Sequence record: OL631484.1
DNA length: 64,000 bases
Origin: Escherichia phage ECML-606-1
Reading direction: 5' to 3' (one strand)
A model generated the notes under the pieces. It did not search any database, had not been told where the DNA came from, and saw only the letters and a program-made list of their open reading frames with translations. A program made the translations under genes and the position numbers. Positions 30,107-38,542 of this stretch are shown here, in pieces; the stretch's first letter is position 1; each line of letters begins with the position of its first letter.

Positions 30107-30796
30107 TTACGAAATAGTGATAGAGCAGGTTGCCGGAGATCCGGTGATGGTCTGCCCGGCCTTAGCCGTCGCTGTTACTGTCACTGTGCCAGTAGCATCA
30201 GCGTCCAGAGTCAACACGCCAGTAGTCGGAGCTACTGCGCCACCTTTAGAGCCAGCTACCGGGCTCACTACATAATCGAAGTCGGTCGCTACAGCGCCGC
30301 CCGTGCCAACATCAAACATCTGAGCGAAAGTCACAGTCGCGCCAGCGGCTGCGGTTACACCTGTTTTAGCTGCAATGGTCTTAACCGGAGCAGGCGGCGT
30401 AATGCCAGCAATAACGGCGTCCACAGCCTGATCCACGATATCACCGAAACCTATATCAGCCAGCCCCAGATTGAGGTTGTTAAGCACGCGCACCAGCTCG
30501 GCACGCTTATGCGGGGTAAGCGCCTGAGCAGCTGCCTCGCGCTGCGCCTGAGAGTGCAGGAAAGCCTGCATCAGGTCTCCAAAGCCCAGCTTGGCAGTGC
30601 CAAGGTTGAGATTGTTGAGCAGGCGTCCAATGTCGGAAGCCTGCGCATCGGTGATGCTGGTATCGGTCGTGCCAGTGTCCAGCAGGTTAACAAAGTGTGT
30701 CCCGAAGTCGGCGGCGGCGATGCCCAGATTCAGGTTGTTCAGCAGGTGCTTTAGTTTACCTTTTGAACTTTCAGAGAGTGTCACAAGGGCGACCAT
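30107..30796 (-). CDS. repeat-containing protein with C-terminal Ig-like/beta region (possible head decoration)
   Basis: Three tandem copies of LLNNLNLG.A..GFGD-containing unit, then Thr/Ala/Gly-rich beta segment; immediately downstream of capsid. Confidence 0.4.
   Translation of the reverse strand: MVALVTLSESSKGKLKHLLNNLNLGIAAADFGTHFVNLLDTGTTDTSITDAQASDIGRLLNNLNLGTAKLGFGDLMQAFLHSQAQREAAAQALTPHKRAELVRVLNNLNLGLADIGFGDIVDQAVDAVIAGITPPAPVKTIAAKTGVTAAAGATVTFAQMFDVGTGGAVATDFDYVVSPVAGSKGGAVAPTTGVLTLDADATGTVTVTATAKAGQTITGSPATCSITIS
30420..30755 (-). repeat. intragenic tandem repeat (3 units, about 126 bp each)
   Basis: DNA motif AGATTGAGGTTGTTAAGCA recurs three times at about 125-bp spacing, encoding the LLNNLNLG repeats. 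Confidence 0.5.
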
Positions 30797-31275: not shown

Positions 31276-32808
31276 TTATTCGCCAGTATGCGGACGCCAT
31301 TTTGCCTGAGTAGGCAGAATGTTTTTGATGTAGCCATGGTGTTTCGGCTTGGTAATACGCAGATAACCAAACAGGAACTGGAACCATGACATTACAGGCA
31401 TCCCGCCTACACCGAATGGCAGAGGGATCTTGGTCATCGGTTGGAACTGACGCCAGCCGATTGCATCCGCGCCAGCGCCAAGGTTCAGCATTGGTACACA
31501 GATGGTGCCCGGCAGAGTGCGGTTGTCGTCGTGGAACTTGGTCTTACCACCAGCGGAGCTAGAGGTATCAATTTTCACGTAACCGACCAGACGCATATCG
31601 CGCAGGGTGTCCAGATCATCAGCAGCTTTCGCCACGTCCTGACGACCACGATAGATGGCGAAGCCGCCGCAATCAGTGGATGCCGGGTTGGTGATGGACA
31701 GCACGATTTCTTCGCCAGAGGCAACAGTAACCTGATCCACGATCACCGCTTCGGACAGGCCAGCGCCGGAGGTGCTGATACCTGCGATAGCGTAGACGTA
31801 CTTACCAGCACGTTTGCCAGTGAAGCGAGCCGCGCCGTTGGTAGCCGCTGCGCCAGTTGTCGCGCCCGGTTTCAGTGCGGAGTTTTTCGCCGCCAGATCC
31901 GGGTTGGTCAGCTGGAACACATGCACCATCGGGTTGGTCTCGTCATGGATAAAGGTATCCATGTGAGTTTTCAGGATGCCAGTAGTCAGGCGGATCCCGT
32001 TAACATGACCACCGATAGTTGGTGTGTTCTGGCCTTCTGGCATCCAGCGGAATGCTGGATCTAAGCCCATGTTCAGATCGTTCTGAACAGAGTTAGGCAG
32101 GAAGATATCGGTTGACTGGCCCCAGTTGCCGTAGGAGTTAACTTCTACGTTAATCTGAGACATCGGCTCAACGCTGTTCAGCGCGGTACCGTTCAGGTCA
32201 ACGATGTGCTCCGGTGCCATTTTCCCCGCAGCCACTTCTTTGTCGATCTGGGTAAAGATACCGTCAAACTGCGTACTAACAACGTCAGCGTTACCATGAT
32301 AAAGCAGGTAGTTGGCGTCGGTCAGCAGTTGCAGTGCGCCGTTACGTTCTTCGACCGCAATCGGCTCAGCGATGTTTTTACCGATGTTCAGGACATAGCC
32401 GACCTGACGCAGAGACATCAGGAATTTGACCAGACCTACTTCACGGCTGTATTCGCCCTGTGCGGCACGTACAACGCCCATCTGGGTGTTGGTAGAACCA
32501 CCAAGGAAACCACCGACAGATGACTGGCGGCTGTATTCGTCAACGATGTTGATCGCGTTGGACTGCTGCAACATGTTGAACAGCGTAAAGTGCTTGTTCT
32601 CCTGAATCGTGGTCTTCATCGCAGTATCAAGAGACTGCACGCCTAACGCGCCGCCGCCCTGCAATTTGCTCACGTCAGTCTGATAGTCCGAAGCCTGAAG
32701 CGCTTTGGTCAGCTCCTCAAACTGGGCCATATTACCGCCCAGAGAGCCGCCAAGAGCAGCTGCGCCGCCCGGCAATGCGTTCTGGAACAGTTGGGCGATG
32801 TTTTGCAT
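31276..32808 (-). CDS. major capsid protein
   Basis: 510 aa, strong RBS AGGAG, position after scaffold and before a strong terminator; N-terminal segment shared with upstream 294-aa protein. Confidence 0.65.
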   Translation of the reverse strand: MQNIAQLFQNALPGGAAALGGSLGGNMAQFEELTKALQASDYQTDVSKLQGGGALGVQSLDTAMKTTIQENKHFTLFNMLQQSNAINIVDEYSRQSSVGGFLGGSTNTQMGVVRAAQGEYSREVGLVKFLMSLRQVGYVLNIGKNIAEPIAVEERNGALQLLTDANYLLYHGNADVVSTQFDGIFTQIDKEVAAGKMAPEHIVDLNGTALNSVEPMSQINVEVNSYGNWGQSTDIFLPNSVQNDLNMGLDPAFRWMPEGQNTPTIGGHVNGIRLTTGILKTHMDTFIHDETNPMVHVFQLTNPDLAAKNSALKPGATTGAAATNGAARFTGKRAGKYVYAIAGISTSGAGLSEAVIVDQVTVASGEEIVLSITNPASTDCGGFAIYRGRQDVAKAADDLDTLRDMRLVGYVKIDTSSSAGGKTKFHDDNRTLPGTICVPMLNLGAGADAIGWRQFQPMTKIPLPFGVGGMPVMSWFQFLFGYLRITKPKHHGYIKNILPTQAKWRPHTGE

Positions 32809-32869: not shown

Positions 32870-33559
32870 TTACAGGCCAGTGCCCAGCACTTTCGCCAGA
32901 ATCGCCGGATCAGGCTGATAACCGTTGCGCAGTGCGCAGTCGATCATGTTCAGCTGCACGCCAGTGATCTTGCCTTCGTTGTATGCAACGTTGGACTTAA
33001 TCATCAGGTCAGCGCCAGTGATCTGGGTATCTTCCGGCTGCTCAGTCGTTGCCTGAGTACCTGCCATGGATTTTGCCATCACGACAACCTGAGATTTACG
33101 CCCGGCACCCTGAGCGCCTGCATTAATCTGGTTCTGCTGCAATGATTTGATCAGCTCGCCCTGAGCCGCGATGGTGTTGCCCATGCGCTCCATCATCTGC
33201 ATCATCAGCGGGAAACCAGTATTCAGCGCTTCGTTGGTGCTGTTTACGGATTTTTGCAGGGTTTCCAGCACTTCGGTGGCGTCGATCATCTGCTCACCAT
33301 TTGCGCCTTCTACCGCAGGCAGAGATTTAGTCAGCTCGGTGTTTTCGCCCTGACCTTTGGTCTCGCCGTTCTCGTCTTTGTTTTCTTCGGTGTTTTCACC
33401 GGAACCAGCGCCAGCGCCTTCGCCGTTGTTGGCAGGGGATTCACCCGCAGCCGCCTGGATATTTTTGTCATCCTGAGCGGCTGGAATTGATTTCGCTAAA
33501 GTCTCTTTCTGCGAAGCATCGAGAGTCTGGAGCGTTTCCAGCAGATTTTTAAAGGACAT
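32870..33559 (-). CDS. scaffolding-like protein
   Basis: 229 aa, acidic, low-complexity Gly/Glu/Asn N-terminal region and helical C-terminus; located between portal-proximal genes and capsid. Confidence 0.45.
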   Translation of the reverse strand: MSFKNLLETLQTLDASQKETLAKSIPAAQDDKNIQAAAGESPANNGEGAGAGSGENTEENKDENGETKGQGENTELTKSLPAVEGANGEQMIDATEVLETLQKSVNSTNEALNTGFPLMMQMMERMGNTIAAQGELIKSLQQNQINAGAQGAGRKSQVVVMAKSMAGTQATTEQPEDTQITGADLMIKSNVAYNEGKITGVQLNMIDCALRNGYQPDPAILAKVLGTGL

Positions 33560-33562
33560 AAT

Positions 33563-34447
33563 TTAGCCTCTTTGTTGTAAGGAAATATCGCTCAGAAAGC
33601 GATGCACCCAAGCAGCCGCCTCGGATGGCGACATACTAAAGTTTGCGGCGCAGTATTGCGCCAGACCTTCTTCTGAGGTCAGGTAATCGGCGGTGATAGC
33701 ACCGGAGATTAACGCGACGCTCAGCTGGTCACGGAACTCGTAATAGCTGATCGGCTGGTTGCCGCCCGTATCAAGCGACTGCACACCAAAGGCACCGCCA
33801 CCAGTCAGCTGGCTCATATCGCTGCAATAAGACGCCTCCAGCGCCTTGCTCAGCACGATCCCGCCCATGGATTTGGTCAGGGTGCCGATAGGAGACAGGG
33901 AGGCTGTGCGCAGATGTTGGTTAACTGGCGTCTGGGACAGGGCGATATTCGTCCAGCGGACTTTATCGACCATTGTGACTTTTTGCTGGGTTTCCGGGTC
34001 TACCTGCACGCTTTTAGCGAGCACGGCACCACCGACAGAAGGGTACCAGCGCTGAGGCGGATTAAGCTGCGTCATTGATTCCCAGACCATGTTTGCATTC
34101 TCAGCCATCGGGCCAGTGCCCTCATACAGCTGCGCTTTTACAAACGTGGTGTTGCCATCGATCTTGACATCGACCGGGCGACCAATTTCGTAGCTTTTGG
34201 CTTCTTTGAGCGACATCCCCAGCTTTTGCCCGATAACGGTAAAGTGGTCAATGTCGATGTTACCGAACTTTAAAAACAGGTCGGTACTCTCAGCGAGGGC
34301 CTTAGCCATGATCTTCTCATTCGTCTGGTCGAGCCCTTCATTGGACGCCTCCAGAAAGATAAAACGCTTCCCGCCCTCGGCTTTCGCGTGGGCTTTGAGC
34401 ATCATATCCATACGGATAAGGTTGTCGGTATTCTCGGTGTCGATCAT
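33563..34447 (-). CDS. head maturation protein (prohead protease or capsid-related scaffold; uncertain)
   Basis: 294-aa ORF upstream of scaffold; contains block LEASYCSDMSQLTGGGAFGVQSLDT nearly identical to major capsid N-terminal segment. Confidence 0.35.
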   Translation of the reverse strand: MIDTENTDNLIRMDMMLKAHAKAEGGKRFIFLEASNEGLDQTNEKIMAKALAESTDLFLKFGNIDIDHFTVIGQKLGMSLKEAKSYEIGRPVDVKIDGNTTFVKAQLYEGTGPMAENANMVWESMTQLNPPQRWYPSVGGAVLAKSVQVDPETQQKVTMVDKVRWTNIALSQTPVNQHLRTASLSPIGTLTKSMGGIVLSKALEASYCSDMSQLTGGGAFGVQSLDTGGNQPISYYEFRDQLSVALISGAITADYLTSEEGLAQYCAANFSMSPSEAAAWVHRFLSDISLQQRG

Positions 34448-35866: not shown

Positions 35867-37660
35867 TTACAGGTCGGGCAGACCAAACGATTTGTAGAGC
35901 CCTTCCTCGTCGAGGTTCTGCAATGTGTTATGCAGCTCATCGAATTTTTTCTTATTGTCGGCTTGCAGCTGCTCCTGCTCGGCCTGCTGCTGTGCAGCTG
36001 CGTCGGCGTCGTCAGGGTTGGCAGGATCAGCGCCCAGCTCCTCGCCCGGCTGCTGTAGCTCGGCCTGCTGCGCCATCTGCTCGGCCTGAATATCAGCGTT
36101 GACCTTAGCCATATAAGGCTGCATCGAAACGCTGTTAAGCGGGGAGTTGGCCCAGTCTTCTTTGATTTCTTCCCAGTTGCGAGCGCGGCGTGCTTCGTTG
36201 ACGGTAAGGAGCGTTTTCTCCTCGTCCCACGCCTGCTTCGGATCCTTCTCATCCAGACCTGTCCAGCGGAACACGTACTTATCTGAGAAGTCGGAAATGA
36301 TGTAATCGGTGAATAAGTCCTCAAAGTGCGACAGCAGCGGTCGCAGGCCCTTATCCTTCGAGTTGATCAGCTTCTCCTCCGTGTCACTGCCGGACAGCGA
36401 ACTGGTACCAGCAGTGAAGGATTCGAAGTTGATCTCGTCCGGGGCGATGCCATAAATAGCGCAGATGATCGCGGTTAAGAACGTCATCCATTTGGCAAAC
36501 ATGATCTCGTTAACGTCTACGCCAAAGTTTTCAAATTTCGCCGTGGATTCCGAAGTTTTGGAAACCATGACGGGCAATGTCCATGCGTTATTGATGCCCT
36601 TCACCATGCTATTCCAGTACCGCTTAAAGGAGTTGAGATCCTCGGTAGAATAGTCGCCGGAGAGATGGAGCAGACCTTTCGGGATGGCGTTCGAGTCGAA
36701 ATACTTCTGGTTGTACGTCATGGCGTTCAGGAAGCCCGTGACGGTGTTTACCAGCAGCTCAGTTTCGCTCATCCCGTAACCTCCGTTCAGCACATCGGTG
36801 CGGGTGTTGCGCGGAACATAGATCAGGTCGTTGTAGGTGTAAGCGGTGCGGATGTTCCCCTGCACCACCTGTAAAGCAAAAATCTCATCATCGCCCTTGT
36901 AGCCGTCCTCAGTACAGAGGCGGATCGTGGCACCATCGACGGCATAAAGCCCGTCCATGCCTAGCGAGCGGTTTTTCTTGAATTCGGTCTCAATCGGCGC
37001 GGAGTCCATCACCAGCGAGTCGCGCACCAGCTTGCTCATGAAGCCTGAGAAGTTATCGCGCTTGAGGCGAGCACGCACGCGGGGGTTACTCTCCCAGCCG
37101 CAGTTTTGCATGAACATTTGCAGCGCGTTGATGGAGTCCTGCTCAGGCTTCGCCAGCCGCTGTGAGCCATTCTGCTCTTTCAAGCGAATCTGGAAGCCGG
37201 GGCCCACGCCTTTCTCACTGGCGCGGCAGAAGCGTTTGATCTGGCGGATGCGGGTCATCACCACCGCCGACAGGATTGGCGTCTTGTCCACCATGTAGCG
37301 CATGGCATCAAAGCCAAAGTTTGTCGGACGCTCATACCAGTCTCCCAGAATCTGCACCTGACGGTCATCCAGCCAGACAGACTGCATACCTTCTTTCTTG
37401 CCCTCGCGGACAGCCTGAGAAGGGTAATCGACCAGTGTATTTTTCTGGAGGGACTTGTAAAATTCCTGATCAGCATATGACTGGGCAATATGCTGAATCA
37501 GCGGAGCCAGATCCGGCACGCTGGAAGGCATTGCAGCTTTCTGCGCTTGCGCCATCGCATCCTGCTGTTCGTCGGCAGGCGCGGCAGGGTTGTGCGCGGT
37601 TTGGATGGCGTTGTCAGACATACGGTTAACCTTTGCAAAGTAGTTCGCAGAGAGTGACAT
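35867..37660 (-). CDS. portal protein
   Basis: About 600 aa, located between terminase and MuF-like gene, acidic C-terminal tail; track start TTG 37678 lies inside the conserved GTCGTGATG motif so ATG 37660 or 37621 is more likely. Confidence 0.7.
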   Translation of the reverse strand: MSLSANYFAKVNRMSDNAIQTAHNPAAPADEQQDAMAQAQKAAMPSSVPDLAPLIQHIAQSYADQEFYKSLQKNTLVDYPSQAVREGKKEGMQSVWLDDRQVQILGDWYERPTNFGFDAMRYMVDKTPILSAVVMTRIRQIKRFCRASEKGVGPGFQIRLKEQNGSQRLAKPEQDSINALQMFMQNCGWESNPRVRARLKRDNFSGFMSKLVRDSLVMDSAPIETEFKKNRSLGMDGLYAVDGATIRLCTEDGYKGDDEIFALQVVQGNIRTAYTYNDLIYVPRNTRTDVLNGGYGMSETELLVNTVTGFLNAMTYNQKYFDSNAIPKGLLHLSGDYSTEDLNSFKRYWNSMVKGINNAWTLPVMVSKTSESTAKFENFGVDVNEIMFAKWMTFLTAIICAIYGIAPDEINFESFTAGTSSLSGSDTEEKLINSKDKGLRPLLSHFEDLFTDYIISDFSDKYVFRWTGLDEKDPKQAWDEEKTLLTVNEARRARNWEEIKEDWANSPLNSVSMQPYMAKVNADIQAEQMAQQAELQQPGEELGADPANPDDADAAAQQQAEQEQLQADNKKKFDELHNTLQNLDEEGLYKSFGLPDL

Positions 37661-37696
37661 CACGACATCACGACGCAAAATAATTTAAATACCCTC

Positions 37697-38466: not shown

Positions 38467-38542
38467 GATTCTGTAGCTACAGCGGTAGAGCGGCGCACTG
38501 TTAATGCGCGGGTCGCTGGTTCGAATCCAGCCAGAATCGCCA
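38467..38542 (+). tRNA. tRNA-Asn (anticodon GTT)
   Basis: 76 nt cloverleaf: acceptor GATTCTG/CAGAATC, D-arm with GG, anticodon stem GCGCA/TGCGC with loop CTGTTAA, T-arm GCTGG-TTCGAAT-CCAGC, discriminator G and encoded CCA; close match to enterobacterial tRNA-Asn. Confidence 0.85.

Follow-up and report, generated by a model that had tools for sequence, protein, structure and literature searches.

Proteases that mature phage heads have to enter the procapsid, stay inactive until it has assembled and then choose the right bonds to cut, and how they do so is understood for few model phages. T4 gp21, phiKZ gp175 and SPN3US gp245 are prohead proteases that cut themselves at the motif which they also use on head proteins, and these motifs are short, with Glu at P1 (L/I-x-E or S/A/G-x-E). 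Maturation of HK97 gp5 occurs at K103/S104 (here and below, a slash between two residues marks a known or predicted cut). In herpesviruses, the catalytic domain of the protease precursor is linked to a C-terminal part that remains on the scaffold or the capsid, and self-cleavage frees it at a site whose consensus is common with that of the substrate site. It is well known that such proteases and their substrates have cleavage sites in common. Here, we describe a stretch of 64,000 nucleotides (nt) of Escherichia phage ECML-606-1 (OL631484.1; the whole stretch is called the window below) in which the phage's major capsid protein (MCP) and a 294-amino-acid (294-aa) prohead protease, encoded by separate genes, have a sequence block in common. 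We consider it fairly likely, from comparison of sequences, that the block is a shared maturation junction, with the cuts at K35/A36 in the MCP and K201/A202 in the protease and with at least 27 co-varying residues on the prime side; the protease would then probably cut itself and the MCP at the same kind of site. The case is distinct in that the element is carried by the protease and the capsid protein, lies wholly on the retained prime side, co-evolves and exceeds the length of a cleavage motif by an order of magnitude.

In function, the nearest analogue is the protease precursor of herpesviruses, which has a release site and a maturation site. The assemblin precursor (pUL26 type) belongs to the same fold class as the window protease, and a cut at K201/A202 would resemble the herpesvirus release site as well as the C-terminal self-cleavage of other prohead proteases. 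However, the shared M site of herpesviruses stems from in-frame nested products of one gene, whereas the window phage uses separate genes, has its second copy in the capsid protein and shares about 27 to 45 prime-side residues rather than a short consensus. Compared with T4 gp21, phiKZ gp175 and SPN3US gp245, the predicted P1 residue is Lys, and a long segment resembling a capsid arm follows the site in the protease. Targeting sequences of the T4 CTS type occur on several internal head proteins, whereas the block is found on the MCP and the protease only. HK97 has the K/S junction logic in common with the window phage, as its gp5 site is FNK/SLGSDADSAGSL and its gp4 has AAMK/SVDG just past the catalytic domain, but HK97 gp4 and gp5 are without a long shared block, there is no separate scaffold and a 103-residue delta domain is removed. 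Through homologues that pass PF04586, the window protease is in the same family neighborhood as HK97 gp4 (MEROPS S78). In Staphylococcus phage 80alpha, a Prp cleavage site with conserved sequence around it is common to the capsid protein (CP), the scaffold protein (SP) and the ribosomal protein L27 of the host (PMC5744158); there, the protease is that of the host and conservation is on the non-prime side, in the N-terminal propeptide that is removed, whereas in the window phage it is on the prime side, which is retained, and the protease is itself a carrier.

A block shared by the capsid protein and the prohead protease

The MCP gene (510 aa; minus strand, 31276-32808) carries the block at residues 37 to 62 (LQASDYQTDVSKLQGGGALGVQSLDT), exactly at 32623-32700, where a preliminary description of the window had placed it. 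The second copy, put at about 33752-33829 in that description, is indeed present in the 294-aa protein (minus strand, 33563-34447) but lies 12 to 15 nt away, at 33767-33841 (residues 203 to 227, LEASYCSDMSQLTGGGAFGVQSLDT). The alignable stretch is also slightly longer than first described, by three residues upstream. BLASTP aligned residues 33 to 62 of the MCP, LTK/ALQASDYQTDVSKLQGGGALGVQSLDT (32623-32712, minus strand), with residues 199 to 227 of the protease, LSK/ALEASYCSDMSQLTGGGAFGVQSLDT (33767-33853, minus strand), so that LTKALQAS... pairs with LSKALEAS..., with 21 of 30 residues identical, one gap and an E value of 3e-8. When the two family profiles were compared with hhalign, the match extended to MCP residues 18 to 82 (32563-32757, minus strand) against protease residues 189 to 244 (56 columns, 46% identity, probability 97.4%, E = 1e-11). 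A hidden Markov model (HMM) of the block, searched against all six frames of the window, found two open reading frames (ORFs) only, those of the MCP and the protease (each with E of about 1e-18; next best, E > 1), and in 82 related head-module loci it found 82 MCP ORFs, 78 protease ORFs and zero other ORFs. An extra copy of the block on further head proteins, as expected of a targeting signal of the T4 type, was seen neither in the window nor in those 82 loci.

The MCP matches phrog_752 ("major head protein") with E = 4e-83; it is an HK97-fold protein of the type found in SPO1 and phage 812. The preliminary description had proposed an alignment with HK97-fold capsids, and a phmmer search of PDB sequences showed homology to solved MCPs of this type, namely, 9vel (SPO1 gp6.1; E = 6.9e-21, residues 21 to 491) and the phage 812 entries 5lii (E = 3.7e-7) and 9row (E = 1.1e-6).

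The 294-aa protein is a prohead serine protease, related to S78 and with the T4 gp21/herpesvirus assemblin fold, and not a paralog of the capsid protein. In PHROG, its match is phrog_1028 ("head maturation protease"), with E = 9e-21, and its family (67 sequences) aligned with SPO1 gp3.2 in hhalign over 226 columns (probability 97.3%, E = 1.7e-11). The homologues SPO1 gp3.2 (23.7 bits), Team1 Pro (26.7 bits) and LP-124 Pro (23.4 bits) exceed the 21-bit cutoff of PF04586 (Peptidase_S78). An AlphaFold2 (AF2) model built on 67 homologues contains a catalytic domain (residues 18 to 177; minus strand, 33917-34396) with a predicted local distance difference test (pLDDT) score of mostly 76 to 95 and a C-terminal domain of four helices (residues 228 to 294; minus strand, 33566-33766) with pLDDT of 86 to 92. 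Between them, residues 178 to 226, which contain the block, have pLDDT of <50 and presumably form a flexible linker. In a Foldseek search of the PDB with this model, the top three matches were 5jbl chains (T4 gp21; E = 1e-4 to 5e-4, probability 1.0), and herpesvirus proteases came next with weak E values. Structure prediction had been suggested for both proteins; the MCP model was uninformative on the position of the block, its residues 1 to 168 having pLDDT of <50.

Residues H68 and S137 are invariant in the 67 protease sequences and align with the FDH and FSVEG motifs of SPO1 gp3.2; we infer that they are the catalytic pair. Within the block, the family shows no variation at L203, A205, G217, A219 and S224, and conservation is 90% or more at K201, D210, G216, Q223 and D226. 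The C-terminal helical domain has the conserved motifs SYFDFR and EAAxWVxRF and, by analogy with the C terminus of HK97 gp4, we infer a role in targeting or tethering the protease to the procapsid.

The N-terminal 17 residues of the protease are variable and modeled with low confidence. Directly after them comes MLK-A (K18, A19), which is invariant and agrees with the cleavage motif discussed below. Equivalents are DILK-S in SPO1, DLKK-S in Kayvirus and SMLK-A in Mecenats66, and K18/A19 may be an N-terminal autoprocessing site.

The preliminary description had not recognized the protease and had allowed for the 294-aa protein being derived from the capsid protein; it would then be a capsid protein of a second or minor kind. 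The basis for this would be the block of about 30 to 56 aa that the two have in common, and yet that linker segment is the only MCP-like part: no region outside it aligns to the MCP, and the remainder of the protein is that of a prohead protease by the PHROG match, the profile match to SPO1 gp3.2 over 226 columns, the predicted gp21/assemblin fold and the invariant His and Ser. We regard this origin as having next to no probability, and paralogy of the whole proteins is rejected on the grounds that the alignment is confined to the block and that the fold and profile matches are those of a protease.

Similarity of the two copies at the DNA level had also been pointed out. It does exist (70%, 61 of 87 nt), but it merely reflects the amino acid identity. 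The two window copies use different codons at 12 of the 21 identical residues, and in related phages a fraction of 0.52 of such residues has the same codon, compared with 0.43 expected from codon usage; therefore, the block is not a recent DNA copy, and recent gene conversion between the two genes is rejected by the codon analysis. A related possibility is that the similarity has no shared function behind it, having come from recent recombination or gene conversion or from chance resemblance of Gly/Ala-rich sequences. The block is indeed rich in Gly and Ala, its copies have the DNA identity just given, and the same-codon fraction is slightly above expectation, such that conversion may have happened occasionally. 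However, the differing codons, the pairwise and profile E values (3e-8 and 1e-11) and the persistence of the pairing in 78 of a diverse set of 80 loci, and also in Herelleviridae, where the block sequences are quite different, make this explanation very improbable, and codons, conservation and E values together effectively refute it.

The 80 loci are from metagenomic phages and were retrieved from IMG/VR with the protease family, and 78 of them have the block in both MCP and protease. The pair is also present in Bordetella phage PHB04, Morganella phage Mecenats66 and Bacillus phage SPO1 (DKSLEAGYEVDPEKMEGGDVFRKESLDKD in gp3.2 and NKALEAGHTVNPLDLEGGGAFRVESLERS in gp6.1), and in a weaker, degenerate form in Thermus phage Lalka8. 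In Kayvirus Team1, the blocks are FMK-SFLTGHGTSPDTQVDAGALRKEE in the protease and VVK-SFQTGYGITPDTQIDAGALRRE in the MCP, and the A511-like phage LP-124 follows the same pattern. The Herelleviridae (SPO1 gp3.2/gp6.1, Kayvirus Pro/Mcp and A511-like Pro/Cps) have homologous MCPs and proteases, the same gene order as the window (portal, protease, acidic scaffold and MCP) and the same pairing of blocks that start at K/S or K/A. The window phage differs from them in being a 95-kb myovirus of Gram-negative hosts whose MCP is about 22 to 25% identical to theirs, and the block is of another type (ALxASxYxTD..GGGALGVQSLD in the window and SFxTGxGxxPDTQxDAGALRxE in Herelleviridae). The pairing is ancient and has been maintained, in phages of Gram-negative hosts as well as in those of Bacillus and Staphylococcus. 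We found no paper that describes it, for Herelleviridae or otherwise, in the limited literature accessible to us.

The exceptions are informative. In two closely related loci (L058 and L059), the protease retains RK-SL only and the remainder of the block is gone, and in a third (L079) the protease is without the QSLD end; the MCPs of these rare lineages, which amount to natural deletion mutants of the block, retain it (checked for L059 and L079). Therefore, the junction is indispensable, and the long block is strongly favored but not absolutely required.

Homologues of the protease and the MCP are found on contigs of roughly 66 to 102 kb, most of about 100 kb. These contigs are labeled in NCBI as Salmonella enterica, E. 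coli or Enterobacter hormaechei (P0037, P0050, P0057, P0061, P0064, P0086 and P0131-P0134) and may be phage-plasmids or co-assembled phage genomes. In Lalka8 (L084, 6535-8705), an annotated CRISPR repeat region and a gene for a TnpB-family transposase lie immediately downstream of the MCP gene.

The lysine boundary and the co-variation of the two copies

The Lys that precedes the block is invariant in both proteins in all 59 non-redundant phage pairs, and P3 is hydrophobic. The consensus around it, in the protease as well as in the MCP, is [LMF]-x-K/[AS]-L-x-A-[GS], and the four residues upstream of the Lys have an identity of 0.20 and show no co-variation between the two proteins. In the MCP family alignment, residues 1 to 32 are variable and Gly-rich, and a run of invariant columns begins with K35, A36 and L37. 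K35/A36 aligns with K24/S25 of the phage 812 MCP, for which both a full-length sequence of 463 aa (5lii) and a chain of 439 aa starting with SFQTGYG (9row, 9rox and 9roz) have been deposited. The shorter chain begins at S25 in 9row, that is, at the first residue of the block in the Kayvirus MCP (VVK/SFQTGYG) and protease (FMK/SFLTGHG). This agrees with the loss of about 23 to 24 N-terminal residues from the capsid proteins of Twort-like and A511-like phages. The alignment with phage 812 thus predicts K35/A36 as the scissile bond of the window MCP (codons 32704-32706 and 32701-32703, minus strand), while motif and alignment point to K201/A202 as the self-cleavage bond of the protease, with K192/S193, nine residues upstream, as a second candidate; both are in the linker.

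Of the roles first proposed for the block, a common maturation-protease cleavage site is the best supported, by the comparative evidence of the invariant Lys, the start of the phage 812 chain and the enrichment of K-[S/A] in the scaffold. The preliminary description had taken intact N termini of the mature proteins, with the block buried in unrelated folds, as the outcome that would speak against its proposals. Since the mature MCP is expected to retain the block as its new N terminus, that statement needs amending.

The distribution of the motif in other head proteins independently supports such a specificity. Between the protease and MCP genes lies a gene for an acidic 229-aa protein (minus strand, 32870-33559), which is presumed to be the scaffold from gene position and composition and which has no match in Pfam or PHROG. 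When counts of [LIMFV]-x-K-[SA] were compared with those in shuffled sequences, this protein had 6 (LAKS21, LTKS76, LQKS101, LIKS136, MAKS161 and MIKS186) against 0.55 expected (P < 0.0005), and the protease likewise had 6 against 0.79 expected (P < 0.0005), whereas the motif was at background in the portal protein, the 367-aa protein encoded next to it and three downstream proteins. In related loci, scaffolds were enriched 8.2-fold (all 64 proteins), proteases 6.2-fold (all 71) and MCPs 2.4-fold, compared with 1.2-fold in other, background ORFs. K-S is also visibly abundant in the scaffolds of SPO1, Kayvirus and A511-like phages, as expected if the protease degrades its scaffold at K-S sites. 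In the window protease, the candidate sites are K18/A19, of which both residues are invariant, and K192/S193 and K201/A202 in the linker.

The resemblance between the two copies goes well beyond what a cleavage motif would need. In an alignment anchored on the K and the GG, block identity between MCP and protease was 0.585 within the same phage and 0.518 between different phages (z = 7.7), a difference reached by 0 of 20,000 permutations; for the 43 best-anchored pairs, the values were 0.635 and 0.563 (z = 9.0). The excess persisted when permutation was confined to the two major clades (z = 7.2 overall and 5.8 and 4.2 per clade), and it was present in the P1'-P5' part (z = 5.4) as well as in the distal GGxA..QSLD part, 16 to 27 residues downstream (z = 5.9). 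Mere divergence after an ancient duplication would predict no same-phage excess, and the codon comparison argues against frequent recent gene conversion as its source. The excess is most simply read as selection of both copies against a single partner that they have in common, and because an extended peptide of 27 residues exceeds the cleft of a protease, this partner, or part of it, is likely to be something other than the catalytic groove. It could be the C terminus of the scaffold, a neighboring capsid subunit or an exosite of the protease. Scaffold C termini bind the N-arms of coat proteins in several well-studied phages. The suggestion that the block might be a shared docking segment is therefore probably part of the story, given at least 27 conserved and co-varying residues past the Lys.

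Proposed processing and its alternatives

In the mechanism that we propose, the protease would recognize a hydrophobic residue, any residue and Lys and would cut before Ala/Ser-Leu. It would be built into the procapsid, with its C-terminal helical domain as the likely tether. Cleavage of the MCP at K35/A36 would remove the variable, Gly-rich propeptide of 35 residues, so that the block would become the N-terminal arm of the mature MCP, exposing ALQASDYQTDV...GGGALGVQSLD. The self-cut at K201/A202, in the linker between the catalytic (18 to 177) and C-terminal helical (228 to 294) domains and perhaps accompanied by further self-cuts at K192/S193 and K18/A19, would split a C-terminal fragment of 93 residues from the catalytic domain, and the N terminus that this fragment gains would be like that of the mature MCP. 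The scaffold would be cut at its six K-S sites. The extra length of the block (27 prime-side residues or more, to a maximum of about 45) most likely engages the partner of the capsid N-arm inside the procapsid, with either the linker of the protease or its C-terminal fragment as the engaging part. In the AF2 model, the block is in a low-confidence linker between two confidently folded domains, a position that a protease could reach. Any role of the prime-side block in recruitment, in the ordering of the cuts or in autoinhibition is speculative.

Several observations weigh against this mechanism or limit it. AF2 does not place the linker in the active site and merely leaves it at low confidence, and the proteases of L058, L059 and L079 have lost parts of the block, which means that the long block is not strictly essential. 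The K-S sites of the scaffold occur without the distal block, and the distal block is therefore not needed for cleavage. Further, several of the K-[SA] motifs of the protease are inside a folded domain, where cleavage is unlikely, and therefore presence of the motif alone does not prove that a bond is cut. The window protease itself reaches no Pfam threshold and has no match to PF04586 even at E <= 5, and hhalign of its family against HK97 gp4, represented by a single sequence, was not significant. The phage 812 anchor consists of a deposited PDB chain sequence and an alignment at about 22% identity, and no experimental N terminus or mass spectrum was found for the phage or its close relatives.

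One alternative is a block that serves solely as a docking segment, with no self-cleavage, such that the linker imitates the capsid N-arm in order to be recruited to the procapsid; it might, for instance, bind the C terminus of the scaffold as coat N-arms do in P22-like, 80alpha-like and SPP1-like systems. Conservation and co-variation that reach at least about 27 residues past the Lys, the within-clade signal of the distal GGxA..QSLD part (z = 5.9), the profile homology over about 56 columns, the lack of the distal block at the K-S sites of the scaffold and the restriction of the block to the MCP and the protease are all in keeping with docking. However, the similarity begins at a Lys that is invariant, with P3 hydrophobic, which is the very motif enriched 8-fold in scaffolds, this boundary is also where the mature MCP chain deposited for phage 812 begins, lineages without the distal block still retain the K/S-L junction and no docking partner has been identified. 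We consider docking without cleavage rather unlikely. The block of the protease could instead be a pseudo-substrate or zymogen latch that, either in cis or between protease molecules, fills the active site of the enzyme or an exosite and keeps it quiet until assembly of the procapsid brings a large excess of capsid N-arms, with self-cleavage then activating and releasing it. Such a latch would fit the presence of the same junction and co-varying prime-side residues in the enzyme and its main substrate, as well as the position of the block in a flexible linker adjoining the catalytic domain. Self-cleavage of a prohead protease is also documented elsewhere, as in SPN3US gp245, the propeptide of which is produced through self-cleavage (PMC10052503). 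AF2 gave no confident intramolecular docking of residues 178 to 226, which speaks against a latch; it also overlaps with the proposed shared junction rather than excluding it, and as an explanation in its own right it seems to us a little more doubtful than docking alone.

Beyond the shared junction itself, we tentatively hypothesize, while holding it to be the less probable outcome, that the block of the protease is a mimic of the mature capsid N-arm, which would dock the protease or its C-terminal fragment at the site of the capsid arm. With similar reserve, that docking site might be on the scaffold or in the shell, and the mimic might be exposed by self-cleavage; the lineage in which this could hold possibly spans the Herelleviridae of Firmicutes, myoviruses of about 95 kb of Proteobacteria and a Thermus phage. 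If mimicry is real, recruitment of the protease, its timing and possibly its retention in the virion would be governed by imitation of the capsid arm and not by a targeting tail, which would be an undescribed mechanism of encapsidation.

The comparative data point to a specificity rule for a large and mostly unannotated lineage of proteases and capsid proteins, namely, hydrophobic-x-Lys, cleavage and then Ser/Ala, together with a predicted N terminus of the mature MCP and a predicted self-cleavage site that would part the catalytic and C-terminal domains of the protease. The rule should aid annotation, as in the nearest GenBank genome, that of Enterobacter phage phiT5282EW (95.5 kb; 99.1% DNA identity to the window), where the head genes are all labeled "hypothetical protein". 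The co-evolving copy of the capsid arm offers a mutable handle on substrate mimicry in the recruitment or activation of proteases. These features are also relevant to the engineering of therapeutic Kayvirus and Listeria phages, which share the block pairing.

The head module and neighboring features

The head genes of the window are on the minus strand in the order portal, 367-aa protein, 294-aa protease, acidic 229-aa protein and 510-aa MCP. The portal protein gene (minus strand, 35867-37678) was identified by PF04860 (Phage_portal, E = 6.5e-21). Its product has LYK-S 7 residues from the C terminus and FYK-S near residue 75, both of which fit the proposed motif of the protease, and the portal may be trimmed as well.

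Another ORF of 229 aa, at 30107-30796 on the minus strand, has no Pfam match; in it, a tail rich in Thr, Ala and Gly comes after three LNNLNLG-x-A..FG repeats. In phiT5282EW, the corresponding stretch is annotated as two overlapping coding sequences, which could be due to a frameshift difference or to a split in the annotation. The sole tRNA gene in the window, for tRNA-Asn (GTT), lies just past the portal gene at 38467-38542 on the plus strand.

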